Shown here: one piece after another, positions 706 through 64,000 of the stretch | Position numbering within the stretch: the stretch's first letter is position 1 | Layout of the letters: each line of letters opens with the position of its first letter | Virus record (IMG/VR): IMGVR_UViG_3300031760_004705 | Coordinates: 24,424-88,423 of that record | DNA length: 64,000 nt | Source: a virus | Lineage: Duplodnaviria; Caudoviricetes | Reading direction: 5' to 3' (one strand) | Made by a program: the position numbers and the translations under genes | Notes under the pieces: model-generated | Seen by the model: only the letters and a program-made list of their open reading frames with translations | Databases searched by the model: none | Told to the model about the DNA's origin: nothing

Positions 706-750
706 AAAAAAGAGGGGTATACTCGTAAGAGTATACCCCTTATTTTATTT
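706..750. terminator. Bidirectional intrinsic terminator between convergent ruvC and endolysin
   Basis: Perfect 12-bp stem AGGGGTATACTC-gtaa-GAGTATACCCCT (713-740), with an A-tract on the left and a T-rich tract on the right. Confidence 0.88.
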
Positions 751-2301
751 TCAAGGATTATTCTTAGAATTAAGAGACTTTTGTAATCCTTTAACTGAAT
801 TAGGACCAAAATAACCATCAGCACCATCTGGGCCAACACTAAACTTATGTTTAATTAAAAATTCTTGAATCTTCTTAGAAGTATCTGGTCCCCAATATCC
901 ATCTACATCTGCACCGACTTTCTTTTGAATTGCTTTCACTAAAGCAGATCCAGTGCGTTCTCATGTAACAGATACAATACCTTTAAAATATTCTTGATTA
1001 CCTTTAAGCTGACCAGAGATAACACCATCTACAGGTGTTCCTAAAGATTTCTGTCAAGCTTTGATTGTTTCATATCCACCAATACCATCTACTGCAAGTT
1101 TAGTAGAGGTTGTAGTCTTATTAGTGGTGGTAGAACTAGAAGTAGTTGTTTTAGCTCCGCCCGTAGTAGCACCTTGATAACGAAGAATGCAATCCCATCC
1201 ATGACTATAGGTATAAATATTCTTTACATTAGTCTCATTACCAGACTGGTCACCGGTTTGGCCACCAGTTGCGCGACCACGTTCATCAATAGATGCCTGA
1301 GCAATTTTAGCGTTTCAACCATTTCCAGAAATAACTGCGGCAGTATGGTAATTGTCATTTAATAGAATATCACCGGGCTGTGCTTTAGATAAATCTGCGG
1401 GAATACGTTTCCATCCTCGAGCTGTAAGATTACTAGACATATTACCAGTATAACTTGCGCTTCCAGTATCAAATCCAGCCTTCTTTAAAGCTCAAATTAC
1501 AAGGGAAGAACAATCACATTCTCCACCATCATAAATATTTTGACGCTGATATTGGTCATATCCAAGAGATCATACAGCACATGCAGTATACATTCATTCA
1601 CAAAACTTAGTAAGTTTATCTGAATCTTTAACTCTCTGTTCATTCTTATCATTCTCTAATTTATTTTGTTTAGCTTTAATACGAGAAGGATAATTAATAA
1701 CACATCAATTAAAATCTGTACAACCAGATACGTCATCATAATATAAAGCACCATCAGTTAAACGTTTAGTGCCTTGTTGTCACATACCAATGTCACCCGC
1801 GGCAGTTGGTCAATCACGCTGCCATCAAGCAATTCAATTAGCATATTCATCTAATTCATCTTTGTTAACATTATTTAATCAAGCAGAACCCTGTATATAG
1901 AGTCCCGCATAATATCCAGCTTTAATAAGAGTATCGCAGAAAGTTTTAATTATTGCAGTTAGTGTGCTCTTGGATAATTTAAATTGACGAGGATCTTCTA
2001 CATCCATATAGATGGGCATATCAAAATCATGTCCTTTAAGTAATCCAATAATATGCTCTGCATCTTTCTTTGCTTCAGCTACAGAGGTGCATACAGTATA
2101 ATAATACGCTCCAACATGTAGACCTGCGGCTTTAGCTTTTTTGTAATTAGTTTCGTATTGAGAATCGGTATAACGACCTAATTTAGTTTCATTACCACCA
2201 CATTTAACAATTACGCCTCATAGATTATGTTTTTTTATCCATAAGGCGTAATTTACATTACCGTCTCAATGAGAAACATCAATAACGGCTTTACGTTCCA
2301 T
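745..2301 (-). CDS. Endolysin, 518 aa: GH25 muramidase + NlpC/P60-like (Amidase_5-type) Cys-His peptidase + peptidoglycan-binding repeats
   Basis: Table-4 translation: AVIDVSHWDG...GLHVGAYYY...PIYMDVED...GMWQ...DFNW (GH25); LGYDQ...ECDCSSLVIWALKKAGF...YHTAAV (Cys/His dyad); VDGIGG..TIKAWQ and VDGYWGPDT..IQ repeats. AGGAG RBS. 15 TGA and 5 TGG codons. Confidence 0.92.
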
Positions 2302-2303
2302 TT

Positions 2304-2660
2304 TTACTCCTTTGTGAAATGTTTTCCTTGAAGGAAGTCATCTGTATCATCTACAGAATCGCCATATTGAATTTCTGGAATAGCCATTGCATCTGCATAT
2401 GTTGCAGGAAGGCCAATCATATTCTTAAATGCTTCGTACATACCAGTAGAAGCAAGACCACTAATCATACCAGTAACGATAGTTGGTAAGTCTAAAGTTC
2501 CAAAACTTCAAACAGCAGCTGCAACTCCAAGAATTGCAGAAATAATAGGAATAAAACTATTTAAAATTTTATTGTGTAAAGTATGTAAGGTATATCCAAT
2601 ACCTAAGCACGCAATTAAAATAATTGGTGATATATAATTAGTTATAGTTGAGAGGTCCAT
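2304..2660 (-). CDS. Holin, 118 aa (1 TGA)
   Basis: Three hydrophobic segments, IVTGMISGLASTGLYEAFK motif typical of Gram-positive phage holins, acidic C-tail. Lies immediately upstream of the endolysin. Confidence 0.8.
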
Positions 2661-2663
2661 AAA

Positions 2664-2861
2664 CTACTCCTCTTCTGGTAAATCTTCTTCCTCTTCTACG
2701 GGAGTGATATATCCTTCTTCTTCAAGCTCTAGAAGCATCTGTGCACGCTGAGTGTCAGAAAGTTTAGGATAAGAATCAATTACATCAACAGCATTTTCAC
2801 CATGCTTGATTCGAAGAATAACAGCTTTTTTAATAATCTTATAAGCAACAGCAGTTACCAT
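2664..2861 (-). CDS. Small hypothetical protein (65 aa), XkdX-like position before the lysis genes
   Basis: ORF track, RBS, tight packing between neighbours. Function inferred from position only. Confidence 0.6.
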   Translation of the reverse strand: MVTAVAYKIIKKAVILRIKHGENAVDVIDSYPKLSDTQRAQMLLELEEEGYITPVEEEEDLPEEE

Positions 2862-2881
2862 AATTATTACCTACCTTTCAT

Positions 2882-3391
2882 TTATAATGGAATTGATACA
2901 GTTGGATTTTGTAATATGTAAGCAGAAGCTCTAAAATAATAATTACTAGAAGTACTAGTCATAGGCTCTGATGTCTGTCAGTATAAATTAGGCGTTAATG
3001 GAGTTGAATCAGTATATGCAGTTCCTCCATGTAAATATGCTCTATCTGTTGTTTTACCTGTTGATATATCTATTTCAAAAATAGGAGCTACTATATCTGT
3101 ACCAGTAGCTATCGTGACTGTTTGATTTGCAGTTGTTGGTTGGCTAATCTTTAATATAATAAAAAACATACCTAAACAATTTCATCTTGCAAAACGAATT
3201 AAAGAAGGAGTAATACCAGAAGAAAAATTAAAAAATGTATTTGTTATACCAGTATCACTATTTTCATTAAAAAGAACAAAATCATTTTTATCTTGTATGT
3301 TATTTAATTTATCTCGAGCAATAGCATCACATATATCATACGTAGTATCCCCTACTTGAATTTGAGAAATTTTATTTGTATTTTCAGCCAT
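2882..3391 (-). CDS. Accessory tail/fibre protein with shared N-terminal tag (169 aa, 2 TGA)
   Basis: Joins ORFs 3182..3400 and 2978..3169 through TGA. Starts MAENTNKISQIQVGDTTYDICD. Confidence 0.7.
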
Positions 3392-3516
3392 TTTATTCAA
3401 TCCTTCCTATGTATGGCGGCATCGTTCCATATATATTTAACATAGGCATTATTTTCTCCTTTTCTTTCTTTAGTTTTAATCTAAATCAAATTCTTTATTC
3501 TTAATGTTGAAATAAA

Positions 3517-4077
3517 TTAAATTTCTTCTTCGGCTCCACCTAAGAGATCGGCCATAACAAGTAGAATATCATCAAGAGTTTCTTGATTTTCTGCAACTCT
3601 ATCTTCAATATCACTACCAGCGAGTTCTGCTACGACTTCAAATAAATCATTAGTGTCAGATTCTATTGTATTAAGTCGTTCAGGACCTTTTGCTAAAAAG
3701 ACATTATCAGCTAATTCTTTTTCTGTATAAAGAATATAGCGAAGAATAATCTCTTCTTCTTCATATGCTTCAACTTTAGGTTGATCAATTACATATCGAA
3801 TAGAAGCACTTTTTATTTGAATAGAAGGATCTTCTTTACTAGGGAGATATTTGAAAGCACCCGTTGTTTCATTGATTATTTTAATGCGAGGATCATTTTC
3901 TTTTAAGAAAAGAGTTTCTCCTGTATTTAATTCAAGATAACTAACAAAATAATGACCTTTTTCAGGAACCATTTCATGATAATGAATAATTTTTTCTTTT
4001 TCTAAGTGACCCAAATTTAAATCGGGATCAAAAATTTCATTTCCTTCATTATCTAAAATTCGATATTGATTATCCAT
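3517..4077 (-). CDS. Putative tail fibre assembly/chaperone protein (186 aa), paralog of 5678..6205
   Basis: YRILDNEGNEIFDPDLNLGHL...QETLDDILLVMADLLGG aligns with the 5678..6205 product. Confidence 0.6.
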   Translation of the reverse strand: MDNQYRILDNEGNEIFDPDLNLGHLEKEKIIHYHEMVPEKGHYFVSYLELNTGETLFLKENDPRIKIINETTGAFKYLPSKEDPSIQIKSASIRYVIDQPKVEAYEEEEIILRYILYTEKELADNVFLAKGPERLNTIESDTNDLFEVVAELAGSDIEDRVAENQETLDDILLVMADLLGGAEEEI

Positions 4078-4110
4078 TGGAACTATTAACTCCTCTCTTT
4101 TGCTTTAATA

Positions 4111-4659
4111 TTAATCATCAGAAATATCAACTACTCTAGCAGTTGTCTTTCATAAAAGCATTCTAGCTCTTATTTGAAATGAATTAGGAGTTATTGTAGT
4201 AGATCTTAAATTATAAAAAGATAACACACATCCTCCACCAGTGGATCCTGATTCTGATGCATTGGCCATTTCTGTTAATACTAAATCTGTAGGTGTACCT
4301 TCAATACCTACCACTCCTAATTGATGATATCCCTTTTTTAAATATTCGTCTTGAATATTTTTTGTATGATCCGAACTTAAAGTTCTTAAAGTAATACTGC
4401 TTGTTGTTTTACTAGGAAAATGAGTAGAACTAGAATAATTACAAACTCTAACTCATTTAAAAAGAGTCTGATTTACGGTACCTGTAAGATTGCCTATAGT
4501 AGCAGCATTAGTAGTTGCTGTATCAAGAGCTTCTGTTGCTTTGTCAAAAGTATCTGATATTGCCTCATTTAATTGTACCATACTTGCACGAGCTCCTGCA
4601 TCTTGTATATCGTAGGTTGTATTACCCACTTTAATTTGTGAAATCGTTGGATTAGCCAT
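4111..4659 (-). CDS. Accessory tail/fibre protein with shared N-terminal tag (182 aa)
   Basis: MANPTISQIKVGNTTYDIQD..., reads through TGA at 4453 to TAA at 4111. Confidence 0.7.
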
Positions 4660-4662
4660 AAA

Positions 4663-5658
4663 TTAATAACCTCCTTCAATTAATATTAATTTTGTAGTGC
4701 CAGAAACGATACTACCATCATTAGTTGAATTAATTACTAATTTATAACTTGAAATATCTGGAGTATCAACTGTAGTATCAAGATTAGTTATACTATTATT
4801 ATTTTTATCATATCTATATAATTTTTCAATACGATCAATTACATGATTATGAGGAATGGTAAAATTAAATCTATGTAAATCAGCATGTTTAAAATATAAT
4901 ACATGCGCACTTGAAGTATCTTCTAAATAATTTTCTAAATCACTACTATAAGCAATAATACTGCCTTCTCTTGGAGGATTATCTCCTATAATTAGTTGAT
5001 CTTTTAAATAGGATACTTCAATGATTTGTATAGGATCTAATCTAGAATCTTCATTACCATCAATTAAATAATCTGAATTTTTAACTTGATTTTGTAAAAA
5101 TTCTAGTCTAGATGGACACCCTGTTTGAATTGCATTACTATATTGTGCCACGTCTTCTGTTGCATCAAGTAAATTTTTAAGATAAGTTTTTCAAAAAGAT
5201 TCTACTAATCTTGCAACAGAACTTATTTTAGATGTGGTAATTATTTGATTCCAATTATATTGATATCACTTTGATCAAGCAAGATCTTTATTTATTGCAT
5301 AAATTATATAAGTAACTCCTGCATCATTATATTCTAATGTATGTCATATTTGAATAACAAGATTATTATTTAATGTTATATATGTAGTATATTCTTCAAA
5401 ATTTGAACTTAATTTATAACCAGTATAATCTTCTACATGAGTTCCACCCATATCTAGCAAATATTCTCCCCTATCTTCCTCTACGGGAATTATATTACTA
5501 TTTATAGTATACATAGGATTATTATTTTCATCAACAAGTAAATCTAAATCTAATAAAGCATCATTATTTTCACTTGGAGACGTAATTCCAAACCAAGTAG
5601 GAATATGTAATCTTGGGAGGGGTAAATCCCCTAATTGTTCATATGGAGTTGCTGTCAT
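4663..5658 (-). CDS. Hypothetical virion-associated protein (331 aa, 4 TGA)
   Basis: ORFs 5344..5673 and 4663..5151 are in frame and linked by TGA-containing sequence (IQI-W-HTLE...LA-W-SK-W-YQ...SF-W-KTYL). Confidence 0.7.
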
Positions 5659-5677
5659 TTTTACCCCTCTCAATTAT

Positions 5678-6205
5678 TTATTCTTCTGATCCACCTAATA
5701 AATCAGCTATAACTAATAATAAATCTTCAATTGTTTCTTGAGCTTCAGCTAACGATGTGGGACCATTAGCTAAAAATTCTTTATCTGAAAGTTCTTTTTC
5801 TGTATAAGGAACATATCTATAAAAAGTTTTTATTTCATCTCATGCGGGAACTAGAACGTTATCAATTACAGGAGCAATAGTTTGACCAACAATAGTTCGT
5901 TCTGGTTCACCATCTAGGGATTGATAATTAAAAATTCCCTTTTGACTATCAATAATTTTAACATGAGGATCATTTTCATTTTCAACTTTATAAACTTCTC
6001 CATCAGTAAATCTAAAAGAGACAACTTTATAATGTCATTGTTCTGGAATAGATTCGTGATGAATATTAAATTCTTCTTTTCTAAGATAGCCAAGTTTAAG
6101 ATCTGGATCAGTAATTTCTTGGTTATCTTGATCTAAAATTGGATACTCATATGAAAAACCAGTGTCTTCTACTGATTCAATATTTTCTTCTAAGAGCTCG
6201 TCCAT
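5678..6205 (-). CDS. Putative tail fibre assembly/chaperone protein (175 aa), absent from the standard-code track
   Basis: MDELLEEN...YPILDQDNQEITDPDLKLGYL...QETIEDLLLVIADLLGGSEE*. Paralog of 3517..4077, with a strong RBS. Confidence 0.7.
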
Positions 6206-6224
6206 TTATAGCTCCTTTCCTTAA

Positions 6225-6725
6225 CTATCCTAAAACTATAAAAGCTTCTCTACTTCATGTATTAGCACCATCAATACTATATTCATTTGTTGCTAAATTT
6301 CTAATAAATAAATTCGTTTGAAAACCAGAACTATGAGTAATATACGTAACCATTACTGTATTTACAGTATGTCATCCTAATGTTCCTAATCAAACACCTT
6401 CCGTACTTTCTTCGTAATCTTCATCAAGAAGGTATCCCGAACCTGGTGGATAACATGCGACTTGTCTTTGTACCCCTATTAAACCTGCAGTAGATACTCC
6501 TGGAAGAGGTGTAACTCCTGATGCAAGAAATTTATTAACAGATATTTTAAAATTATTTAATCTGGTAATAGCAGTATCACTTTTTGTTTTTGCATTAGAA
6601 GCATTAGTTCTAATTGTAGACAAATCAGAAATAGTATTTTGTTTTCCAGCAAGAGAAGCTCGTGCAGTAACATCATGTATATTATAAACATTTTCACTTA
6701 TTTGAAGTTGTTTAATATATGGCAT
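6225..6725 (-). CDS. Accessory fibre protein, tagged paralog (166 aa)
   Basis: MPYIKQLQISENVYNIHD..AGKQNTISDLSTIR. Reads through TGA at 6390 to TAG at 6225. Confidence 0.7.
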
Positions 6726-6739
6726 TTTACTTCTCCTTT

Positions 6740-7210
6740 TTATCCTAATTTAATATAAACATCTTTACTATTAGCATCACCTATTGCTACTGTTACTGTT
6801 CCAGTTCCGACTTTTCTTGAATAAAGTATTGTATTACCGCCAGAATAATATACTCTTTGTACAATAAGAGAAGCAGCGCCAGGATTAAAACCAGTAGCTC
6901 CTAAAAAAGTATATCCAGATGGAGCTGTTTTATCATCTAAAGTTATAGTTTTTGCAGTTCCCAATCGTCCTGCAGCTGGACCTGCAGCAAAAGTTACTTG
7001 AGCACTATTTTTTGCAGCTTTATAGGTTATATCAAAATTATTTAATCTATTAATTGCAGTTGTAGCATTTGTAGCTCCAGTAGAAGCATTACTTCTAATT
7101 GTAGATAAATCAGAGATAGTATTTTGTTTTCCAGCAAGACTTGTACGACTGTCAGCGTCACAGATATCATATACTGTATTACCTATTTGAAGTTGTTTAA
7201 CATCTGCCAT
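6740..7210 (-). CDS. Accessory fibre protein, tagged paralog (156 aa)
   Basis: ORF track. MADVKQLQIGNTVYDICD..AGKQNTISDLSTIR. Confidence 0.75.
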   Translation of the reverse strand: MADVKQLQIGNTVYDICDADSRTSLAGKQNTISDLSTIRSNASTGATNATTAINRLNNFDITYKAAKNSAQVTFAAGPAAGRLGTAKTITLDDKTAPSGYTFLGATGFNPGAASLIVQRVYYSGGNTILYSRKVGTGTVTVAIGDANSKDVYIKLG

Positions 7211-7224
7211 AATTCATCTCCTTT

Positions 7225-7695
7225 TTATCCCTTTTTAAAATATACATCTCTACAACTTGCATCACCTATTGCTACTGTTACAGCAGATGTAGTCATATTT
7301 CTACCATTTATATAACTAATACCGGCTAAATGATTTAACTTTGTAGTAATTATTGCTGGCGATCCAGGATATCATCCAGCAGTTCCTAAAAACTTATGCC
7401 CAGAAGGCGCGGTTTTAGTACTCATTGTTAATCTACTTTCAGCGCCTAATGCTCCTTGAGCACTAGAAGCAGCAAAAGTGATTTTACTTGCATTTGTTGC
7501 TGTTACGGCACTAAAACTAAAATTACCAATTCTAGTAATTGCTGTTGCTGCTTGAGTTTTACCTGTAGAAGCATTTGATCTAATCGTAGATAAATCAGAG
7601 ATAGTATTTTGTTTTCCTGAAAGACCTGATTGAACAGTGGCATCACAAAGATAATAATTCATATCACCTATTTTAATTACTTGAATATCTGCCAT
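7225..7695 (-). CDS. Accessory fibre protein, tagged paralog (156 aa)
   Basis: MADIQVIKIGDMNYYLCD..SGKQNTISDLSTIR. Reads through TGA at 7372 and ends VTVAIGDA..DVYFKKG like 6740..7210. Confidence 0.75.
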
Positions 7696-7704
7696 TTTAA
7701 CTCC

Positions 7705-8481
7705 TTATGAAATGCCAGTAACAACAGTTTTTTTAGTAACTCCGGTTACAACAGTTTTCTTTGAAATATTTGGAATTGTAAAAGCAGTACCCAAAGTTGG
7801 AGCAGATCCAACAGAAGTAACATTTGGAATAGATTTTGCAGTATAAGATAAACTTGGCAATGTACCAACTGCAGTCACATTTGGAATTGACTTTGCTGTA
7901 TAAGATAAACTTGGTAAAGTTCCAACTGCTGTAACATTTGGAATTGATTTTGCACTATATGATAAACTTGCAGCTGTGCCTGCAGTTACGGTAGCAGAAG
8001 CTCCATTTGTAACCTGGTCTTCTCCACCATTTAAAACATATTCAGGGAAAATTACTCTTTCATTTGTTGAATCATAAGTAATCTGTACTGCATTAACACC
8101 AGAGACTACTGTATTTGGAGTTACTGCAGTTGGGGTATTTGTAGTTCAACCTGTAATGTCATCCGCAGGGATTGCCGTTCCTAATGTTGGTAATGTACCT
8201 GCACTCCATGCAGTAATATCATCTGCAGGAATCGCAGTTCCAAGAGTTGGTAATGTACCTGCAGATCATGCTGTAATATCATCTGCGGGAATTGCTGTAC
8301 CTAAAGTTGGAGCAGAACCTACAGATGTAACATTCGGTACTGTAAAAGCTGTACCAACTGTGACTGAATCGCCAGTAGTTACAGTAACAGAATCTCCTGT
8401 AGATACTGTACCATGTATTGCACTTGAATCTTTAATATTATAGGTAGTGCTACCTAATTTTATTTTTGAAACATCAGCCAA
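7705..8481 (-). CDS. Thr-rich fibre protein with 20-aa internal repeats, tagged (258 aa, TTG start)
   Basis: MADVSKIKLGSTTYNIKD, then repeats PTLGTAIPADDITAWSAGT and VPNVTAVGTLPSLSYTAKSI. Confidence 0.75.
7800..8345 (-). repeat. Coding 60-nt tandem repeats (two blocks, about 7800-7990 and 8150-8345)
   Basis: 60-nt periodicity is visible in the DNA and encodes the 20-aa units of CDS 7705..8481. Confidence 0.8.
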
Positions 8482-8494
8482 TTAATCTCACCAC

Positions 8495-9067
8495 CTAAAT
8501 ATTCATTGTTATTGTATCACTTGCATAAGTGAATAAATTCTTTCAAGAAGGACTTCAATCTGTTGCTTTGTGTCCTTTTTCTAATTTTACATTTTTTATA
8601 GTAACAGTGGTTCCCGCAGTTGTATTACCACTTGCACCTAATCTTCCAGCAATACAATTTTTTAATGCGGCTGCACCACTATTAAAAGTTCATGTTACTC
8701 AATATTTTTTATATTCAGTTGTTAAAGTAAAGGTAGAATTACCATCAGAAGATGTTCCTGTAATACCTTGATTATTAACACAAGAAGCATTTTGAACAAT
8801 ACCAGATGCGTTATTATAAAAATAAGAAATCATTTTTGTATTTGCTACAGATGCTTTTGCTTCAAAAGACAAAGTTCAAACATCATTAGGTTGAACCGTT
8901 GCAATATTACTTCAAACTTTAAAATCAGAATAACCAGAAGAAGGTACTGTTCCAGTAAATTCACCTTTCGAAGCAGGTAAATAATTGTATCCACCTCATT
9001 TAGAAAATCTATCAACAATAGAATAAGTAGTACCATTAGTACCTTTAATAGCTTTAATATCTGCCAT
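8495..9067 (-). CDS. Tagged carbohydrate-binding-module-like tail protein (190 aa)
   Basis: MADIKAIKGTNGTTYSIVD...GGYNYL...KLEKGHKATDWSPS. The C-terminal motif is typical of CBM/galactose-binding-like domains of siphophage tail proteins. Several TGA. Confidence 0.7.
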
Positions 9068-9082
9068 ATGTACTACTCCTTT

Positions 9083-9736
9083 CTATTGGAAAAATGTAAT
9101 CGTCTCATTAGCATAAGTTGCTAGGTCATAATAAGATGGAGTTCAGTCTGTAGGTTTATTGCCTTTTTCTAATTTTGCATGAGCAAAACGGCAAGTTAAA
9201 CCAGTACTATTTCCAGTCACGCACATGCCAATTAAAAATTCTCAATCAAGTTTAGCACTACTGCTTGGTTGGAATGTGAAACGATATTGTGTTCAAGTAT
9301 TAGCTGGAATAGAAACATTATTTTGTGAAGTTCATCCAGTATATCCAGCTGTTGCAGACCCATTTCTTCAACCAGTATGCATATGTGCAGTTGTTGCAAG
9401 GCTAGACTTTAATCAGCAAGTAAAAGTATAAATCTCTCCAGCTTCAATTGCCCCAGGTTTGGAACATCAAGAACATCCTCTATTTCCTGTACCTGTATCA
9501 TTATTAAGAACTAAAGAATTACTACTATTATCATATTCCTCTAAAGTAAATAATGAAATGGGCGAATTATATCCAGCAGTCTGTCCAAAAGTAAATGCAG
9601 CAGACATTGTAGTTGCTGGAAGTACATAATTATTAGTAGCACCTAAGAGATTTTCATTTCCAAAAGTAGAAACTTTATCTTGTAAATCATAAGTGACATT
9701 ATTTAGTCCTTTAATCTGTGAAATTAAATCTGCCAT
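9083..9736 (-). CDS. Tagged carbohydrate-binding-module-like tail protein (217 aa)
   Basis: MADLISQIKGLNNVTYDLQD..GNENLL...AKLEKGNKPTDWTPS. Reads through multiple TGA. Confidence 0.7.
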
Positions 9737-9744
9737 AATGTCAC

Positions 9745-10365
9745 CTACTCACTATATAATTCAATTGTTTCGTTACCAATAAATTTTGCAATATCTTCTG
9801 GCGCAGGACTTCAATCAGTTGGTTTATTACCTTTTTCTACTTTAACTTTTGCCATTCAAATTTCATCTGCGGTAGTTGTATTGCTACCAATCATTAAATT
9901 AAATCCTACACAATTTGCAGGAGCAGTGTATACAGGTGAAACATAATGGGCAGAAGTAGTAGTTAAAGCTGGAGAAAATCAAACCTGAGAAATAATACTA
10001 CCAGAAGAATTCATTCAATGTATTCCCGCACAACATTTTTGGCCAGCCGTTTTAGCATATGCATCAAAAGATACTATAATTTGATCTCCTTCTGCAACAT
10101 CCCCATATCCTCCACGGTGAACAGAATTTTGAGAATAGCCTTGATATTGAGTTGTGGTTGAAACAATGTGCATATAATTAATTCCATTAATTGTTACAAC
10201 TTCTCTAGTAGTAGGACTTCCTCAATTTACTCAAGGTGCAGGTGGAGTAGCACTTAAAAATCTAGTATTATAAACAAGATTGCGGCCGCCCCATATAGAA
10301 TAATCGTCTCTGATATTGTAATTAACATTATCAGAGGTGGCTTTTATCTGAGAAATAACTGCCAT
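9745..10365 (-). CDS. Tagged carbohydrate-binding-module-like tail protein (206 aa), absent from the standard-code track
   Basis: MAVISQIKATSDNVNYNIRD..GGRNLV...KVKVEKGNKPTDWSPAPED. Confidence 0.72.
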
Positions 10366-10383
10366 TTAAAAGCCACCACCTTT

Positions 10384-13020
10384 CTATGCAGGAACACTAG
10401 TTGTTGCAGATGTTCCAGTAAATGTCGAAGTATAAGTCTTAGGTACTGCAATATTACCAGTAACAAGTCGTACTGCTGTACCTGTAAAGGTAGGAGCACT
10501 AACACTACCAGCAGGTGTATAACTGCCAGTAGAAGTTATCGTTGCAGCTGTACCAGTAAATGCAGGTGCAGAGTTCGTTCCAGCAGGAGTATAATCTTGA
10601 AGGACAAGTCGTTTACCTGTGCCCGTAAATGTAGGCTGAGAAACTGTTCCGGCTGGAGTATATGATCCGGTTGAAGTAATGGTTGCAGCTGTACCTGTAA
10701 ATGTAGGCTGCGTAGATTGATAAGCTGCATCTCCAGTTTTAACGGTTGTATTAGATCCCTTAGTAGGTAGTGTACCAGCAGACCAACCAGAAGCAGAACC
10801 GTTAGTTGCAGTTGTAAATGACATTACTTCATTTGAAACTGAAGTTCCTGTAATAACTGTTTGATTTGTAACTGTTAAAGTAGGTAATGTTCCAACAGCA
10901 GTAATACTATTAACAGTTGTAGTTGTGCCCGCAGTTTTAACTGAAATAGTTGGGGTACTAACTGTACCAGCTGGGGTATAAGATTTACTAACTGAAATCG
11001 TTGCAGCCGTACCACTAAATGTTGGTTGTGATACTGTACCTGCAGGAGTATATGTTGCAGTACCGCTACTTGCAGGACTAACTGTTAAACCAGTAGCTTT
11101 TGTACCTGTAAATGTAGGTGCAGCAACACTACCTGCTGGAGTATATGATTTGCTAACTGAAATTGTAGCGGCCGTACCTGTAAATGTTGGTGCACTATTC
11201 GTACCCGCAGGGGTATATGTGGTAGTTCCACTAGAGGCCGCACTAACTGTAGCAGTTTTATTTTCAGTTGTAGCAGTACTAGTTGCAACCGTACCAGTTG
11301 CAGTTACAGTATGCTTATGATTTCCCTTAGCAGCAGTAGATGCCGTATTTCCAAGAGCAAGAGAAGCACTAATTTCTACATACCCAGCAGTTGATCCACC
11401 ATAACGATAAGTTTTATTTGTAGATACATCTACATAAATTTTATCTGCGGCAGCTGCAATTTCAGTAGTATGTGCAGACTCTGCATAAAATTTATTGTTA
11501 TATAAATATCCTTCTTTAATTTCATCAATTGAGCCTGGAAGGACTGATGTAGGAATTGTACCAGTTAATTTACTTGCATTTAATGAACTAGATGAAGTTA
11601 AGAATCCTGTCACTGTATGAGTATGAGTTCCTGTTGCAGTAATATGGCCCTGAGCATCATATGTTACATAAGGTACTGCTAAAGTAGAACCACTAGTTGC
11701 AGAAGATGTACCTGCGGTTCCCGCAGTTACAGCATTAGTATGTTGAATAACTGTTCCATTTAATTTAATGCCAGTATTAGCAGTATATGTTGTATTATTA
11801 TCAGGTACGGTAACTGTACCAAGACTTTCACCATTTTTATTTTTTAAAGTAATAGTATGATCTGAAATACTAAAACTAGCTGCATAAGAAGTCTTAATAT
11901 TATTACCAGATTCATCCTGAGTTGCTTTAGTCGCGGTAGATGCATTTCCATTTAAGGGACCATTAAATTGAGTAGAAGTAACTTGCGCAGGAAAACTAGC
12001 ATTTTGAGAATTATCGTAGGAATATAAATGACCCTCTTTTGCCATATTAGAAGGAGTTATCCAGCCAACGCCGCCGAATCCCATAATTCTTTGAACTGTT
12101 AAGCCATTATAATTAGTATTTCCACCATTTGCCTTAAAAATAAATCTTATACGGCCATATTGAGAACCAGCTGTATTTCCATAAGTGGCAATACCACTTG
12201 TATTAATTATATTATATCCACTTCAACCAGAGATTCCTATATCTTCTGTTTCATTTACAAAAGTTGTAGGAGTAGATTGTAGTGCTTTTTGAATTTGTAC
12301 GGTACAAGAACTACTGCCATTTGTTGAAATATAAATAACAAATTTATTTAAAACAGTATAAACAGAAGCGGCTCCTGTATCAATTGTTATTCTTAATTGA
12401 TATTTATTTGTATTTGCAGTTGCTTTATTTGTGTTATCTGCTTTTCCAATTAAAAAACTTCCGCCTGTTCCAAAAAGAGTAGCATTAACGTTTGCTCCAG
12501 CTCCATAATCAGTTCAAGTTGATCCTCCGTCACGACTATATTCAATTGTTACAGAAGAGCCTTTTATAAAAGCTAATCTATTAGCTCCTAAATTTGGAAC
12601 CATTGCTGCATCAATAGGGCCATACGATGCCGCAAAATTTTTACCTCCTCAAGTTAAATAAGCTTCTGGATAACCAGTTAAAGTATGAGTATGAGTTCCA
12701 GATTTTGTGATATGTCCTTGTGAATCATAAGTAACATAAGGAATATCTATTGTCCCATTTACACTTGAGGTAGCACTTGATGCTCCTGCTGTCGCGGCAG
12801 TAACATTATTTGAATGGTTAAAAGTTGTACCCGAAAGGCTTAAACCACTACCAGCACTATATGTAGTATTATTATCTTGTTGTGTAAAGGTAAAAGTTGT
12901 ACCATCTCGTCTAGTTGCTGTAAAGGTGGTACCATTTCTTGTAATATTAGCTATTGCACTTCCATCTTTAATATTATAGCTACTATTATTAGGAAGTGTA
13001 ATTTTTGAAATATCTGACAT
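10384..13020 (-). CDS. Long tail fibre protein (878 aa), tagged, with HxH motifs and Thr/Gly-rich YTPxGTVxxPTFTGT repeats
   Basis: ORFs 12649..13032 and 10384..12084 are in frame and joined via 3 TGA. Starts MSDISKITLPNNSSYNIKD. Contains GTHTHT and NHKHT motifs. Confidence 0.78.
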
Positions 13021-13069
13021 TAATATTATCACCCACCTTTAGTGTAATCACCTAATTTGTTTCATATAA

Positions 13070-13109
13070 AATAAAAAGGGCAACTCTGTAATTATACAAA
13101 GTTGCCCTT
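13070..13109 (-). terminator. Intrinsic terminator after CDS 13121..14758
   Basis: Stem AAGGGCAACT...AGTTGCCCTT (13076-13109), followed on the minus strand by TTTTATTTT. Confidence 0.75.
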
Positions 13110-13120
13110 GAAAGCATTTA

Positions 13121-52596: not shown

Positions 52597-53781
52597 TTAA
52601 GGATTAGATACTGGAAGCTGATCAAAGATAGACTTATCATATAAGCTATCAAAATACTTATCATGATCAGCAGTACGATCTGTTAAGCTATCAGCACCAG
52701 AACCATCACCGTGGCCAACAACCTGCTTATTAGCATAGTTGTGCTTAGCTTCAGAAGGATCAATAATTTGAAGAGCAGCCATTACTTTCTTACGCTTATT
52801 AAATTTAGTATAAGCGGGGAAAGCATCAATGGTAAAGGTGAAGGTTGAAGGATCACCAGAATTAGCCATTGTAAAGGTGAAGTTAGACTGAATCTTGCCA
52901 CGAGGAATAATAAACTGAGCAGGTAGATCCTGGCCAGTGGCTTCCTCACGGAAGAGAGTGTCAGCTTCAATGTAATAATAACCAGCGAAATTCTCAGCAT
53001 CAATTTGAATTTCCTGAGCACCAGCACCGTGAACAGTATAGCAATCAATACGAACGGTATCACCGGCTTTAATTCCGCCAGCTGTGCTTGTAGCAGGATC
53101 TAACTCTTGAGTACTCTCATGATCATCAGTATGAGCACTTTCATCATAATCATTTAATGGAGAAGTAAGCTTGAAATAAAGATCTGCATTCGGAGCTACT
53201 TTAATAACACCACGAGTGCTAATTTGATTAGTAGTAAGACCATTTTGTAATTTATTATCTGTAAAGATTTCTGCTTGAGAAACCGCAGATAAGAAATATT
53301 TAGGAGCACCAGCACTATCAAGAGTAGTTGCATAGATAGGAGCTTCTTTAGAGACAACTAAAGTTGCACCGTCACGAATATCTTGTGGAAGACGTGCGTA
53401 ATAATTACCAGCACCAGAGCCTTCAATAACAAGGTCGTAAATCTGATGTGTGTAAATCTTAGGATCAGTATCGCTATCAGCGTCAGCAGCGCCAACACCT
53501 TTAACAATACCAGCACCAGAAAGCATAGCAAAGCTTACAGGAGAAATAAGAGCATCTTCGACGGTGAATGTAAGAGTTTTCTCTCCGTCCCAACCAATTA
53601 GACGAGGATTACCCTTTCCGCCCTGTGCATAAACTGTAGTAGCAGCACCTTCAAGAGTACTGGTCTTAGCTGTATCAAGATAAAGAACAGGCTGACCAGC
53701 ATCAAAGTGCTGATTACCAATATCTACAGAAGTTAAAGGACGAAAGACAACGTCGCAGATCTCGCGTACACCCATGCGCAT
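52597..53781 (-). CDS. Major tail (tube) protein (394 aa)
   Basis: GVREICDVVF...LDTAKTSTLEG..TVYAQGGKGNPRLIGWDGEKTLTFTVEDAL...GKIQSNFTFTMANSGDPSTFTF. Capsid-like codon usage. Position upstream of the TMP. Confidence 0.78.
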   Translation of the reverse strand: MRMGVREICDVVFRPLTSVDIGNQHFDAGQPVLYLDTAKTSTLEGAATTVYAQGGKGNPRLIGWDGEKTLTFTVEDALISPVSFAMLSGAGIVKGVGAADADSDTDPKIYTHQIYDLVIEGSGAGNYYARLPQDIRDGATLVVSKEAPIYATTLDSAGAPKYFLSAVSQAEIFTDNKLQNGLTTNQISTRGVIKVAPNADLYFKLTSPLNDYDESAHTDDHESTQELDPATSTAGGIKAGDTVRIDCYTVHGAGAQEIQIDAENFAGYYYIEADTLFREEATGQDLPAQFIIPRGKIQSNFTFTMANSGDPSTFTFTIDAFPAYTKFNKRKKVMAALQIIDPSEAKHNYANKQVVGHGDGSGADSLTDRTADHDKYFDSLYDKSIFDQLPVSNP

Positions 53782-55332: not shown

Positions 55333-56485
55333 TTTTATCTCCTGTAAATGATCCAATAGCAACAGGAAAGACTACAGTTTCAGTTTCACCATCTTGTTCA
55401 AACACACAAGTTAAATTAAATTTACCCTTGCGACCAGTAATAATTTCAATTCTACATTGTTTACCATCTTGTTCAAGAATAGTTGCAACTGCCGCATTAT
55501 CAATTGAAAATACAACATCTTTACCTTTTGCTCTATATGTATAGAATCCGTATGGTGCAACTTTATCAGGACCAACAATATATTCTCTGCGTCAGTCAAC
55601 TTCAACATTTAAAGTATATTCACCATAGTTAACAGCATAAGAACCAATGGCACCGTCATGTATTCTAACTTTACACATATTGCCATTATTCATTACTTCA
55701 ACTATCTCTACTCTTGGATTACCAGTAACAGTCCATTCATATTTATTCTTTAAATATTCTTTTGGAATATAATAACCAACTGTAGTATCTTGCGGAACGG
55801 TTGTTTCACCAACAATTACATCAGTATCAGCTGCAGCCGCACCACGACGAATTTCTGGTAATTCAGCAATAGGATTATCATAATACTCTTGCACTTCGAT
55901 TTCAAGAATCCCAGGAACAGAAATACTATCTGTTACTTGAACTTCTCATATATGACCATCAACTTTAATATGAGTAAAACGTTCAAAAAATGCACGAGTT
56001 TGTGGATTTAGTTTAATATAAATTGTACCTGATAGATTTAACTCATTAATATTAATCCCACGCTTAATAAACCAACGAAGGTCTGTTTCAGTTGGTCCTT
56101 GAAAATAAATTCAATATTCTTCATCATCAATTGTCATTGTATAACGACAACGAATAATTGAACTTCTTAAATAAGCAGTTTCAGTTAATCGTGGAAGGTA
56201 TATCATCCAATGAGTTCCATCATCAAGACATTCAAATACATCTCCTGGTTCAAGTCCCGCATCATATTCAACAGAAATAATTTTCTTATCATAATCAGGT
56301 TTTAAACCAGCGGTATCATCATTAATTAAACAAGGTCAAGCCGCATGTTTAGGTGTTTTTATCATTCGTGATTGATAATCATCTTTTAATGCAGCTCGTA
56401 GTCCCCGCAATTTTTGTAAGTTAATGCGGCCAAGCTTATCTCCGCCATTATACTGTAGACGTGCGCTAAGAGTTTTCAGAGACAT
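55304..56485 (-). CDS. Putative head-closure protein with C-terminal Ig-like domains (393 aa)
   Basis: Table-4 ORF MSLKTLSARLQYNGG...; in frame with 55592..55894. C-terminal IVG..V..Y.Y.WTV repeats look Ig-like. Confidence 0.6.
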
Positions 56486-56723
56486 TATTACCTTCTTTCT
56501 TACTGCTCACGTCTGTAGCCGTTTTTTGAGAATAACCTAATAATGAACCAATTAATAATCCAGTTGCATTAATTGTTATTACTCAAGGCTCTAAAGATAC
56601 GTGTCATGCCGGCCCTACGACACCTAAGAATGTAGCTACCGCAGGACAAGCGATTAAACCAACCCATTTAAGATGTTCATAAACCTTAAACGGGATTATA
56701 TATTCCTTAGTCTTATCCTCCAT
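56466..56723 (-). CDS. Second holin (85 aa, Dp-1-type, 2 TGA), absent from the standard-code track
   Basis: YEHLKWVGLIACPAVATFLGVVGPAWHVSLEPWVITINATGLLIGSLLGYS. Two TM helices and the Y..LKW...I..PA..T motif of small Gram-positive phage holins. AAGGAGGT RBS. Confidence 0.72.
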
Positions 56724-56744
56724 CTTAGCCACCTCCTTATTTAA

Positions 56745-58203: not shown

Positions 58204-59259
58204 TTATTCATCAGGAAGATTATGTAAACGGGTCTCTTTAACGAGATCAGTATTACGATAACTGAAGATAAAGTTAGTGAAGAATGTAGCAACGCCAAAC
58301 TTCTTATAGGTCTGGAAATCGGTGCTCCAGTCATCATTATCCTCGACGGTACGAACAGCGGTAGGACCTTCGAAGACGATCTTAACAGGCTTGTTGTCCT
58401 GTCCAACAGGCATAATATAAGCCTGTGCAGGGTCAATTACCTTCTCCATGTTGGTTTCATCAACAACAGACTGAGGAAGAATAATTACATTGTGACCCTT
58501 GTAGTTGCCAAGCCAACCATCAGCCCAGAGACGATTCTTCATATCATCAGAAACCCAATTCTGCTGTGGAAGCATCTTAGCAGCAAATTCAAATGTGCAG
58601 TAAATAGAAGCACGGCCATAAGTATCAGCGATAGCTAAAAGCTCATCCATTGTAGCCTCATCAAAGCCGGCAACCTCAGCACGCTGATAGCGTGGGAGAC
58701 CTGCGACAACAGCTTCAAGAGCCTTAGCAATCTCACGATAAATGAACTCGTCCATACCTTCCATTACAAGACCAGTAAGCTCAGAGAACTGGATGCGACC
58801 ATCAAGCATCTCTTCAAAGCCGATACGAGCGGCTCCGCCGATAGCAGCGGTTCCGACCTCGAGCTGCTTACCATCGAGCATGAAGACTTCGTAACGACCA
58901 GCTAAACCAACGCGGGTGACGAAAGTCTTAGCACGCTTACGAGCAGCTTCAGTAACGCGCATACGGAAGACAGCCTTGTCACCGTTAGCTACATTACGAA
59001 CCTCTGCGAACTGAGCATACTGCTGCTCAACACGAGCAGGAAGAACCTCATCAATAGTCTGTTCAATTAGACGGAAGATAAGGTTTTTATTTTCACGGTA
59101 ATCCGCATAGCTACCAGCTAATTTCTGGAACTCAGACTGAAGAGCAGAATTAACCTGGTCAAGAGTGTAAGACTCATTGCCGAAAGAATAAGCGGTAGGA
59201 GCGGTAGGATCAGCATTGACTGCAATGCGAGCTAACTCAAGTAGATCATTATATTCCAT
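58204..59259 (-). CDS. Major capsid protein (351 aa)
   Basis: Size, position after the protease and decoration genes, highly expressed codon style, own terminator. All 4 Trp are TGG. Confidence 0.85.
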   Translation of the reverse strand: MEYNDLLELARIAVNADPTAPTAYSFGNESYTLDQVNSALQSEFQKLAGSYADYRENKNLIFRLIEQTIDEVLPARVEQQYAQFAEVRNVANGDKAVFRMRVTEAARKRAKTFVTRVGLAGRYEVFMLDGKQLEVGTAAIGGAARIGFEEMLDGRIQFSELTGLVMEGMDEFIYREIAKALEAVVAGLPRYQRAEVAGFDEATMDELLAIADTYGRASIYCTFEFAAKMLPQQNWVSDDMKNRLWADGWLGNYKGHNVIILPQSVVDETNMEKVIDPAQAYIMPVGQDNKPVKIVFEGPTAVRTVEDNDDWSTDFQTYKKFGVATFFTNFIFSYRNTDLVKETRLHNLPDE

Positions 59260-59276: not shown

Positions 59277-59771
59277 TTAAGCCTTAATGCACTGTAACTT
59301 AACTGCGGGCTGACCATCAGGAAGAGTGTACTCTTTAACAACACGGAATACAACATCACCATCAGAACCAGCTGCGAGGAAACCATCGTTACCAGGGGTA
59401 ACGTCGTCTCCAACAGAAAGCTCAGTATCATCTGCGAATGTATTAGTTGTGAAAATATCACCAGCTACGACACCAAAGACGCGAGGATAAATCTTGCCGT
59501 CATAGGCATCCTCGACCTTTTGTGCCCAATGCTTGTGCATCTGATAGCGCTCATCATAGAGCTTTTCCTCGTTATAAACGAGCATCCAAGCGCCGTCGCC
59601 TGTAAAGTTAACTTCGCCAGCAGCGTAGTCATACTTTACAAACATGCCGTTTTCAAGGATTTTAATATCCTCTGCGGCAGGAAGCTGCGCATAGACGCGA
59701 CCATCACGAGGAGCAGAGAGATGATTTGGCTCTACTTGGCCATAACCATCACGCTTAATTGTAATAGCCAT
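59277..59771 (-). CDS. Capsid decoration/cement protein (164 aa)
   Basis: Between the scaffold and MCP genes, same codon style. Beta-rich. Confidence 0.65.
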   Translation of the reverse strand: MAITIKRDGYGQVEPNHLSAPRDGRVYAQLPAAEDIKILENGMFVKYDYAAGEVNFTGDGAWMLVYNEEKLYDERYQMHKHWAQKVEDAYDGKIYPRVFGVVAGDIFTTNTFADDTELSVGDDVTPGNDGFLAAGSDGDVVFRVVKEYTLPDGQPAVKLQCIKA

Positions 59772-61177: not shown

Positions 61178-61195
61178 CTATTTTCCCTCCTTTCG

Positions 61196-62761
61196 CTAAC
61201 CCTGTGATTCTTCATTTGCGATAGTCTTATCGGACTTTTCGTCCTGTGGCAGCTCTGGACGGCCACCTTGCTCTCCCGCAGATGGTTCATTACCTGTCTT
61301 GTTACCGTTCCCGCCACCAGACTGTTGAGTTTTGCTTACGGTAGAAGACATTTGCGGAGGAGTAAATATCTCGTCAAGCTTCATCATCTGATTCTCGAAG
61401 ATCGCGGTCGCGAGCACGGTACTAGGAGATTCTCCAAGAGCAATCTGTGGTAATAGTTTGGAAAATCCAATTTGTGTTTGCTCTTTGTAAAGCTTGGAAA
61501 GATCTTTATAATTATAAATAGTTGTAGGAAGCATCTGTACTTGATATTTTAGACGCTTCGGGTTTTTGTTGAAAACTTTTAATAAGCTTTCAGCAAAGTC
61601 CTCAAATTGAAGAAGAAGATTTGTCATAGTAGCTTCGTCATTGAGAATAGACTTCTCAAGAGCTAAGTTACCACTTGTATTAAATTGCATTTGACTAACG
61701 CCAGCTTCATTATAAACTGTACGTTCAACTTTATCTAATTGGTCGGCCGCAGACATATTACCTTTATCAGATAAATCTTCTACGTGTACATCAGCGAAAG
61801 TAGTTAAAACATCTACTCCTACTGCTTGACCAACCATGCCAACTGCATTTTTATGTAACTCTCGAGCTTCATCTACATCGAATACAAGATCACCATTTTT
61901 ATCAATTGGCATCTCTTGGATAATGAGACGAATAAGCTGTTGTTCCATCTTCTTCTGATCTAAATCTTGTGCATCCTCAAGATCAATTAATTTTGGTATA
62001 ATTGATAAAAATAGAGGAATATCACTATGATTAAGATTAAATTTAAAAGCAGCGCCCGCATCTAGAGCAAATCATCCAAGAGTATCACCATTATGATCTT
62101 TCTTTAAAGTATTATGCTTATATTTAATATAAGCTTGTTGAAACTCTTTAGGGAACATTTTTAAAACTCTAATGCGGTATTCGGTATCTGAGAATTTATC
62201 ATCAAAGAATCTGACATTAAATTCTACGATTGGTGAACCGTTAAACTTAAAACGACTGCGGCAGTAGTCAATAGGAAGCTCTTGGATATAACAAGCATTT
62301 TTCTGTTCAATCTTATATCCATAGAAACAACCATTCTTAACAACCTTTAATGCAATTTCACCAAATTCTTTCTTTAAATTACAGTTGTCAAGATAAGCTA
62401 CTGATTTTAATCAACCCTCAATGACCTTTGCATCTTTAATTTTATCATCATATCGAACAGGAATTACTGTCCAATCATATCTATAAAGATAGGCCATATA
62501 ACGGCATAATCGTGAATAAATACCACTTCTAAAGAAGAAATAATTAGAAATGGCCCTAAGTTCTTTTAAATCATGTCGTTCAAGGGCTCTATAAACATCA
62601 TGTTTACGAATTCTGCGGCGATTACGCTTATCAAAAATAGATGTATTTAATGTAACATCATCTTTAAATAGCTTTTGATCAATACGCATTTTATTGAAGT
62701 CTATAGAAGGACGTGCAGTTTCGTTTGAAGCAACTAAACGAAAATCTTTTGTATCACTCAA
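61196..62761 (-). CDS. Portal protein (521 aa, TTG start, 2 TGA)
   Basis: ORFs 62411..62827 and 61196..61948 share one frame via TGA. AAGGAGG RBS. Size and position between terminase and protease. Confidence 0.82.
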
Positions 62762-62774
62762 ATGCTCGACCTCC

Positions 62775-63131
62775 TTAGTATCCAGCCGCCCGCATGATAT
62801 AATCAAAACTAATTTTGTTTTCATCATAATAAGGAATACAAATTAATTTAATACCATGATCTAAACAATATTTTCGCTTTTGCACATCGTTATATTTTTG
62901 CCGTCCAACACCTTTTCGCCCACCAAATTTATCTACTGCGGTGTAATGTTGTTTCCCTTGGGCTTCAATTAAGAAGTCAAGCCCACCATCCTCTGTAAAT
63001 ACGGCAAAATCAAAACGCAAGTGTCTGCCACTTGATGCAATTAAGTCGTCAAACTCGTATTCTTCTTCAAAAGGAACATCATAATCAGTTAAAATATTGT
63101 GAATTTTAACTTCCATAGCTGAACTCATCAT
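62775..63131 (-). CDS. Small PD-(D/E)xK (Vsr/DUF559-like) endonuclease (118 aa)
   Basis: EEEYEFDDL...LRFDFAV...LIEAQGKQHY...QKYNDVQKRKYC..HGIKLICIPY. Confidence 0.78.
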   Translation of the reverse strand: MMSSAMEVKIHNILTDYDVPFEEEYEFDDLIASSGRHLRFDFAVFTEDGGLDFLIEAQGKQHYTAVDKFGGRKGVGRQKYNDVQKRKYCLDHGIKLICIPYYDENKISFDYIMRAAGY

Positions 63132-63213
63132 AATATTCCTCTTTCAGTAAAACTTACTTATTCATTGTATATGGTTTTACAGGATACTCACTAATAAAAT
63201 TTGACCCCAAATT

Positions 63214-64000
63214 TTAATTAAAGAACATAAATTTTGAAATATCTCTTTTACGTTTCTTATTACGAGAATCTTCCTGTAATTTACAATAATATAAGCCATA
63301 TATTAGTGCGGAAAATTTATCCTTTTTAATCTTTTTAGATGCTTGCTTTAAAATAATATGAGCACCATCATTTTCATATATAAGATTTAACATTTGATCT
63401 TTTAAAATACTTGTCTGTACAAATGGCATAAGGTAATCCGCACGTTGAGATTGACTCATCTTTTTACCTTGCGCTTGAGATAATAATTTATTTTTCGCAA
63501 TAGATTCATCAACTAAGAAATTTACTCTACCGGAATTAATTTCTGTTTGACAATAAGCATACATTTCAGAGTTTAATACCTGATTAGCTTTCATAATATA
63601 CATAGCATCAGTTACCGTATCATCTGTTTTCATATTGCGATATTTATTATCTTCGTCGTTCATTACACCTCAATTGTAAAGTGTTTCACCTGTGTCAGGA
63701 TCAATTGTATCCATTGTTAGCATATCTACAAGGCCCGCACCTAGACCGTTACCGTCGATTACAGCTACGCGGCATTTATACTGTTGAAAAATTCTTTTTA
63801 ATTTTAATGCTTGTAAACCAAAGTGTTCTTCGTCAAAAGAATAAATATTAACAATACGTTTGCGCGGAATGTCACCCGCACCTGGAGTTACTTTAATTAT
63901 AACTACTTCAGTAGTACAACCAAATCTACCAACGTCAACACCCATTACATAATATCCATCTTTTGAAGTTTTATTAGAATATTTTCATTCTGGCATATTA
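63214..64000 (-). CDS. terL: Terminase large subunit, C-terminal nuclease domain (5' end outside window)
   Basis: YYVMGVDVGR (RNase H-like first Asp), IDGNGLGAGLVD, KKDKFSALIYG. ORFs 63670..63945 and 63214..63663 joined by TGA (LYN-W-GVM). Confidence 0.88.

Follow-up and report, generated by a model that had tools for sequence, protein, structure and literature searches.

A change of genetic code during infection is the published model for recoded phages of the gut, and in the preprint of Borges et al. the TGA-enriched families are given as tail protein, lysis-cassette membrane protein and intron endonuclease (10.1101/2021.08.26.457843). Among the crAss-like phages the code can switch over short phylogenetic distances (PMC7886860). 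The subject of the present analysis is the uneven use of TGA as a tryptophan codon in a window of 64,000 nucleotides, which comprises bases 24424-88423 of one 88,423-bp virus contig (IMG/VR record IMGVR_UViG_3300031760_004705). An original prediction, made from the letters of the window, held that TGA is partitioned there by gene function and serves as a codon-level timer of the late genes. The reading favoured here, with a probability of roughly 70%, is that suppression of UGA is costly and that selection purges this codon from highly expressed late genes, so that a separate timer is not needed.

When TGA is read as tryptophan (code 4), the open reading frames (ORFs) of at least 100 aa total 121.8 kb, compared with 76.3 kb under code 11, and a contiguous array of minus-strand genes is revealed. 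TGA codons 12, 156 and 174 of the endolysin gene align with the conserved tryptophans of the DxSxW(x)G, WIA and MWQ motifs of GH25 structures (5a6s, 4kru and 3hmc). By this alignment TGA is assigned to tryptophan in the contig. The reading of TGA as glycine (code 25, as in phages of the Absconditabacteria type) is excluded by the same conserved GH25 positions, and this candidate was ruled out. Such contigs need to be annotated with code 4. The stop codons used on the contig are 50 TAA and 25 TAG, and no gene needs TGA as its terminator. In a few genes a TGA stands within the last few codons, at codon 154 of 157 in the gene at window positions 14783-15256 and at codon 596 of 598 in the gene of a RecJ-like protein (L002:636-2432). 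In such genes the near-3′ TGA could be a stop before the code switch and sense after it, with the product almost unchanged.

With TGA as a sense codon the contig contains 75 ORFs that form two divergent arms. The plus-strand (early) arm lies nearly all upstream of the window, and the minus-strand (late) arm fills the window. No terminal repeat was found on the 88-kb contig, which is probably a fragment of a large Firmicutes siphophage genome of about 125 kb when complete, the window being its late (virion and lysis) arm. The split in TGA use between the two arms is much larger than the partition within the late arm, and lies mostly outside the window. TGA accounts for 79% of 259 Trp codons in the late arm (205 TGA and 54 TGG) and for 18% of 119 in the early arm (21 TGA and 98 TGG), being present in 35 of 49 late genes and 9 of 26 early genes. 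The twelve replisome-core genes contain no TGA and 63 TGG, though 73% of their Lys, Glu and Gln codons are A-ending. In a logistic model the late-arm effect is kept after control for the axis of codon style described below (b=2.65, likelihood ratio test (LRT) chi2 99, p=2e-23), and it is repeated, given the axis, in a syntenic 125-kb relative, G001 (LRT 64.8, p=8e-16).

The TGA codons of the early arm cluster at three places (all gene counts are given as TGA/TGG and are read under code 4): a GIY-YIG endonuclease gene (5/0), an ORF of 141 aa (4/1), and the genes of dUTPase (3/2) and RuvC (2/0). The last two are the final genes of the arm, and the 141-aa ORF, near the arm end, is found three ORFs before the dUTPase gene. 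The GIY-YIG-like ORF is an insertion outside the window (contig L001:6035-7042, plus strand, 5/0). Four inserted ORFs of G001 (33670-34398, 43694-44641, 51392-52138 and 53845-54846) are similarly near-saturated with TGA, at 23/2 in total, inside a replication arm that is otherwise free of it; one is GIY-YIG-like, two are HNH-like and one is unidentified.

Within the late arm TGA is unevenly distributed among the genes (Pearson chi2 90.1, 43 degrees of freedom (df), Monte Carlo p<0.0002), and pure chance was rejected as the source of this unevenness. An axis of codon style was obtained as the first principal component (PC1) of log relative synonymous codon usage with Trp left out, and holds 23.5% of the variance. 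Its poles are CAG, AAG, TTC, ATC, GAG and CGT at one end and AGA, ATA and TTA at the other. The axis is expression-like, and includes C-ending codons of Phe, Ile and Asn and the Arg codon CGT, which are typical of translational selection. The five most extreme genes at its expression-like end are all TGA-free: those of the capsid, the decoration-like protein, an early 318-aa protein, the probable tube and the 595-aa fibre. The four late genes among these, and three further genes that use TGG only in this contig, are as follows.

15333..17120, minus strand: 595-aa fibre-like gene, without a family match; 0/1; PC1 -5.2, GC 0.445.
50466..51008, minus strand: 180-aa gene between the tube region and the tape measure; 0/1; TGG-only state not conserved.
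52597..53781, minus strand: probable major tail (tube) protein, from phrog_2729 (virion structural protein) and a VRE9_2-like position; 0/1.
53924-54697 and 54709-55362, minus strand: two virion genes, TGG-only here; 0/1 and 0/3.
58204..59259, minus strand: major capsid protein, 351 aa, with an HK97-fold model; 0/4; PC1 -7.4 (the most extreme style), GC at third codon positions (GC3) 0.40.
59277..59771, minus strand: decoration- or scaffold-like gene, just upstream of the capsid gene; 0/2; PC1 -5.5.

The use of TGA is graded along the axis. From the expression-like end the TGA fractions of the late-arm bins are 0.09, 0.70, 0.75, 0.95 and 0.84, and the slope is significant over the whole set of late genes (p=3e-7) and remains so when the four extreme ones are dropped (p=0.011). 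After the axis is taken into account the residual heterogeneity of the late arm is chi2 57.4 on 42 df (p=0.09). In G001 the corresponding heterogeneity falls from chi2 94.5 on 35 df to 37.6 on 34 df (p=0.37). The 0/4 of the capsid gene is in line with its codon style, for which the predicted P(TGA) is 0.18 (z=-0.95). The TGA-free genes of this style have a GC content of 0.41-0.46 versus 0.26-0.35 in their neighbours. The comparison of TGA fraction with a Trp-free codon axis had been proposed in the original prediction as its own check; in both phages it absorbs the heterogeneity within the late arm, which counts against a partition of that arm by function. It is thus probable that the differences in TGA use among late genes follow expression-linked codon bias. 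No difference was seen in the +4 base between sense TGA and either TGG or the background (p=0.52 and 0.87), and the position of TGA within genes is uniform (Kolmogorov-Smirnov p=0.89), so that neither a tuned read-through context nor gates placed at the 5′ end were found.

A comparison with relatives indicates that in three of the genes this exclusion goes beyond their general A/G codon bias. When viral contigs were scanned with the capsid protein, 23 related loci of 52-100% identity were obtained. Ten distinct relatives, with capsids 84-94% identical, have recoded head modules, and in those further removed TGA is scarce or absent in this module, L013 being an example of a TGA-free head module (0/40). 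Conserved columns were compared in 11 recoded sequences, the reference and the ten relatives, and in six of them for the probable tube. All seven conserved Trp columns of the capsid (four), decoration (two) and tube (one) genes are TGG in every sequence compared. Elsewhere among the head and tail genes, TGA turns up in one or more of the sequences at 27 of 30 Trp columns (Fisher p=1.2e-5 versus the seven columns). Only 20 of 99 conserved Lys, Glu and Gln columns of the same three genes are G-ending throughout; as the remaining 79 are not (Fisher p=3.6e-5), TGA is shut out of these genes more strictly than ordinary A-ending codons, and hence more strictly than a general A/G bias would give. In the capsid gene itself 35 of 46 Lys, Glu and Gln columns are polymorphic, and all Trp codons are TGG in the 11 sequences. 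At the Trp positions of the genes at 53924-54697, 54709-55362 and 50466-51008 the relatives use TGA, and the TGG-only state of these three genes, with one to three Trp codons each, is on this comparison attributed to chance. The TGA-free partition of the original prediction is therefore conserved for capsid, decoration and tube, and is not for the other three.

The alternative that had been offered beside the timer, namely that UGA is avoided in highly expressed genes, gives the better fit, with the addition that the avoidance in three abundant virion genes exceeds the A/G bias. In the mechanism proposed here, a phage tRNA(UCA) would be encoded in the part of the genome that the contig does not cover, as it is in the closest near-complete recoded relatives, and would decode UGA against competition from host release factor 2 (RF2). 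After the change of code, AT-biased mutation would cause TGG to drift to TGA wherever selection is weak. Because suppression would compete with RF2, each UGA would cost some truncated product, and selection would then remove UGA in proportion to expression, and wholly from the most abundant virion proteins. The replisome genes, which are needed before the tRNA accumulates, would have to stay TGA-free. A purge that is stricter than that of ordinary disfavoured codons argues for a per-codon cost of UGA suppression in an RF2 host, and such a cost bears on how tightly recoding can serve as a lysis lock.

Several points weigh against this reading. Expression level was inferred from codon style, gene identity and terminators, and models of cost and of a timer both predict TGA-free capsid genes, so that only the graded relation favours cost. 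The sequences compared are phylogenetically related, and the Fisher p-values overstate their independence. The residual p=0.09 of the late arm is borderline, with few Trp codons per gene. There is no tRNA, release factor or tryptophanyl-tRNA synthetase (TrpRS) gene on the contig, and the decoding agent is inferred from relatives. Finally, as there is neither a weak-termination context at +4 nor a positional skew, competition with RF2 has left no direct trace in the sequence.

The lack of a tRNA on the whole 88-kb contig (aragorn and Rfam) is attributed to the contig being a fragment without the stretch of the tRNA array. The contig is without about 50 kb that in G001 separates the gyrase B gene from the terminase, and the tRNA array of G001 is located in this stretch, among small early genes that are poor in TGA. 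A suppressor tRNA that is absent from the fragment should not be taken as absent from the phage. A tRNA(UCA) is found in both near-complete relatives with recoded head modules that were examined, G001 and G005, and none was seen in the tRNA arrays examined of three relatives with little TGA in the head module. Among ten large ORFs sampled from G001 61-111 kb there was no match to release factor 1 (RF1) or TrpRS.

The cultured relatives infect Firmicutes (Enterococcus, Lactococcus, Bacillus and Clostridium), and the nearest cellular homologues of the NrdD of the contig, at 58% identity, are from Clostridia (Oscillospiraceae, Butyricicoccus and Clostridiaceae). These NrdD homologues, together with the TGA-free replisome, make a standard-code Firmicutes host that terminates at UGA very likely. 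The same NrdD (L002:7550-9463) shares 98% identity with its counterparts in G001 and in a 105-kb contig (L075) of a 'Clostridium sp.' metagenome-assembled genome (MAG), with neighbouring genes at 55-88%, which suggests that NrdD was recently exchanged among related phages. The 105-kb contig is probably that of a phage caught in a bacterial bin. A prfB search of this MAG gave one match below the family cut-off; the link between bin and host is weak and the result was not used.

In the original prediction the TGA-free bulk subunits are made in the host code before the suppressor tRNA builds up, and the TGA-bearing genes of assembly, tail tip and lysis wait. If true, the late programme would consist of two steps set purely by codon choice, and the TGA-free genes would be a selected, separate expression class. 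Such a timer would explain why the abundant virion genes are TGA-free, and remain so in relatives, and why at least one TGA was found in every low-copy assembly and lysis gene checked. The general idea of timing by a code switch is published (10.1101/2021.08.26.457843), and separate transcription is conceivable from the hairpins that bound the capsid and tube genes and from a strong promoter-like site before the gene at 50466-51008. The use of TGA, however, changes by degrees along the codon axis, with no division into two classes, and codon style alone predicts the TGA-free state, as described above for the capsid gene. An early gene of the same style is also TGA-free, so the trait tracks expression and not virion function. 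Moreover, the TGA-free genes share a strand-continuous late block with TGA-bearing ones, the tRNA(UCA) of relatives lies among TGA-poor early genes, so that the locked interval may be short, and bulk subunits would find little on which to assemble if portal, scaffold or protease were missing. The timer is therefore considered unlikely. What stands of the code-switch claim is that, with a host that terminates at UGA, the TGA-bearing genes depend on the switch; the lock by which bulk subunits come early is not supported, given the graded axis, the shared block and the lysis genes, which are not enriched.

Mosaicism, by which the TGA-free and GC-richer genes would be recent imports from relatives with the standard code, with too little time since then for drift to TGA, is improbable. 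It draws on the difference in GC content to the neighbouring genes, on those relatives whose head modules have little or no TGA, such as L013, and on the probable exchange of NrdD, as a sign that such transfer does occur. Set against this, the same codon style is found in five dispersed genes, one of them in the early arm, and the axis is more than a shift in GC, as it includes the C-ending codons of Phe, Ile and Asn and CGT. The capsid gene, with Trp as TGG in 11 of 11 sequences while 35 of 46 Lys, Glu and Gln columns vary, has been resident long enough to drift. A host that itself uses code 4, for example Mycoplasma-like, in which TGA would merely be a rarer or slower Trp codon, would be consistent with the missing suppressor tRNA on the contig and with sense TGA codons that have no special context. 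The 0/63 of the replisome genes in an AT-rich genome, the tRNA(UCA) genes carried by relatives, the existence of close relatives that are weakly recoded or not recoded, and the standard code of the Firmicutes infected by all cultured relatives make it highly improbable. A phage of a code-4 host of the Mycoplasma or Spiroplasma type was likewise rejected as a candidate since TGA is not the main Trp codon throughout, at 18% in the early arm and 0/63 in the replisome.

The remaining genes of the window, with the counts on which the description of TGA use is based, are listed below.

204..698, plus strand: RuvC-like resolvase, final gene of the early arm (phrog_827); 2/0.
745..2301, minus strand: endolysin with an N-terminal GH25 lysozyme domain, from PHROG endolysin families and PDB GH25 matches; 15/5.
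2304..2660, minus strand: holin (phrog_1129 holin, E=2.6e-16); 1/0.
2882..14758, minus strand: TGA-rich array of tail-fibre or receptor-binding-like genes, with weak PHROG tail and host-range matches.
19259-19441 and 19457-19633, minus strand: two small Trp-rich ORFs of 60 and 58 aa, with only a sub-threshold Gp10_C match; 4/0 and 3/0.
19644..40735, minus strand: large tail and baseplate genes, including proteins of 1316, 1218 and 2684 aa; 88/14 summed.
40860..50321, minus strand: tape measure protein, 3153 aa (PHROG tape-measure families, E=2e-53); 26/4.
56466..56732, minus strand: small holin-like gene inside the head-tail module (phrog_881 holin, E=2e-11); 2/1.
59789-61177, minus strand: head-assembly gene of intermediate codon style; 1/2.
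61196-62827, minus strand: portal (phrog_2739 portal, E=4e-85), intermediate codon style; 2/1.
63214..63996, minus strand: large terminase, of which the contig end leaves the C-terminal part; 2/0, and 1/3 to 12/0 in relatives.

All counts of the original prediction were reproduced: TGG only in the capsid, decoration, tube and 595-aa fibre genes (8 of 8) and in the genes at 53924, 54709 and 50466 (5 more); TGA for 15 of 20 Trp codons in the endolysin gene, for 7 of 7 in the two small ORFs and for most in the tape measure (26/4); and at least one TGA each in the terminase, portal and 59789-61177 genes and in both holins (2/0, 2/1, 1/2, 1/0 and 2/1). The description of lysis genes as saturated with or enriched in TGA was overstated. 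The endolysin gene has many Trp codons (3.9% of its codons), and its TGA fraction of 75% is under the late-arm mean of 79%. Three genes of the fibre array at 8495-10365 have counts of 7/0, 7/0 and 6/1.

The Pfam matches of the plus arm describe a replication and nucleotide-metabolism module, with topoisomerase II subunits B and A, ATP-dependent ligase, GIY-YIG endonuclease, a ThyX-like protein, a Sak4-like ATPase, DnaB, primase, a RecJ-like protein, DNA polymerase III alpha, guanylate kinase, NrdD, NrdG and dUTPase. By PHROGs the minus arm contains endolysin, holin, many tail, fibre and baseplate genes, the 3153-aa tape measure and the head-tail module, which ends in portal, HNH endonuclease and the truncated large terminase. 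From portal to tape measure the PHROG families follow one another as in the 140-kb Enterococcus phage VRE9_2. No Pfam match was obtained for the capsid, decoration, tube, fibre, terminase or most large tail genes, and a PDB sequence search with the tube profile and a full-length terminase orthologue gave no match. The tail and baseplate genes at 19644..40735 have two weak PHROG matches, both to families of unknown function. The full-length terminase orthologue is 42-43% identical to annotated large terminases. The model of the capsid protein has an HK97 fold (pLDDT 65) and matches phage capsids and encapsulins (Foldseek E=6e-7), and that of the tail tube is too poor for use (pLDDT 43). The identities of the tail tube and decoration genes are probable, and rest on gene order, the PHROG description 'virion structural protein' and codon style. 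GC-rich, terminator-like hairpins are found on the minus strand directly after the genes of the capsid (58178-58156) and probable tube (52559-52536) and after the gene at 50466-51008 (50457-50430), which is preceded by a near-consensus promoter-like site at 51068-51040. The hairpins after the capsid and tube genes fit a high expression of both.

The UCA tRNAs of G001 and G005 are 94-97 nt in length and each has an extra arm (L071:16722-16818, plus strand, which is G001:76722-76818, and L041:1323-1416, minus strand). The tRNA of G001 contains A1-U72 and G73, which are identity features of tRNA-Trp (review PMC9976931). If seven pairs are assigned to its acceptor stem, the tRNA of G005 is likely to have Trp identity features too. 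The extra arm consists, in 39 unique sequences taken from viral contigs, of a covarying stem of 5 bp and a 7-nt loop, N-U-CCA-A-A. Judged from this loop, it is a copy of the Trp anticodon arm, that is, a putative second anticodon arm with the Trp anticodon CCA. In a census without an arm requirement such an arm was present in 23 of 33 phage UCA tRNAs, and all 23 have the U-CCA-A loop. Similarly, a long extra arm is present in 16 of the 73 unique amber-suppressor tRNAs (CUA) of phages, with a CUG or UUG (Gln) loop in about 14 by eye; long-armed amber suppressors are found at viral loci L235, L250, L252, L253, L259, L265, L301, L315, L318, L325, L333 and L343. It is plausible that the extra arm keeps recognition by an anticodon-reading synthetase, for example the host TrpRS. 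No paper on a two-armed design of suppressor tRNAs was found by full-text search of an incomplete literature collection.

The tRNA arrays of G001 (L029 and L032) and G005 (L027 and L041) also include Lys(CUU) and Gln(CUG), and Glu(CUC) is found in G002 and G004. These tRNAs read the G-ending codons that are favoured by the capsid-type genes. For ATA, TTA and AGA, which are frequent codons of the tail genes, the arrays of relatives additionally contain Ile(UAU), Leu(UAA) and Arg(UCU or CCU). Upstream of the array of G001, at 62852-73160 (L071:2852-13160), there are genes for an RNA ligase, a TROVE (Ro-like) domain protein and metallophosphatases, with a weak, sub-threshold radical-SAM-like match in the same stretch. 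From its gene content this stretch looks like a module for RNA repair or tRNA care.

The phenomenon itself is already known, as the early/late pattern matches those of Borges et al. and Yutin et al. The contig is probably from a phage of the published gut and rumen class in which UGA is read as Trp during infection of standard-code hosts. The closest are the 'Agate' phages (Borges et al., 10.1101/2021.08.26.457843), a likeness that rests on shared traits. In both, TGA is Trp, recoding affects the structural and lysis genes, and the replication machinery keeps to the standard code. Genomes of ~125-130 kb and infection of Firmicutes, which here are those of the relatives, are also common to both, as are TGA-rich homing-endonuclease ORFs in the early region (the GIY-YIG gene with 5/0 here), TGA being hardly needed as a stop, and a tRNA(UCA) in only part of the genomes. 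The preprint gives a lysis-cassette membrane protein among the enriched families; the endolysin gene here is not enriched over the late arm. The sparing of capsid, decoration and tube is not mentioned in the preprint, in which the term 'major capsid' occurs 0 times, and no paper stating that abundant virion genes are spared was found by full-text search of an incomplete literature collection.

The crAss-like phages (Yutin et al. 2021, PMC7886860) similarly confine reassignment (TAG to Gln or TGA to Trp) to late genes and carry suppressor tRNAs, but they belong to another phage order, are podovirus-like and have Bacteroidetes hosts. In-frame stops in their capsid gene were among the markers of recoding, so that not every recoded phage spares its capsid gene. 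Enterococcus phages EF1 and VRE9_2, Lactococcus phage 949 and Geobacillus virus E3 have the same PHROG order of portal, capsid and tape measure, with proteins of 38-43% identity, but use the standard code without recoding of stop codons. The TAG-recoded gut siphophages of the phAss-1 group (PMC10607447) are a distant structural relative, with a tube 46% and a terminase 42% identical. Recoded stops are listed there for terminase and tape measure and not for capsid or DNA polymerase III alpha, which is the same sparing as described here. The codon in this group is, however, TAG (glutamine), with CUA suppressors, and the sparing is not discussed in the paper. The contig is thus one more well-resolved case of phages that change the genetic code during infection, and the refinement that it brings to these systems is quantitative.

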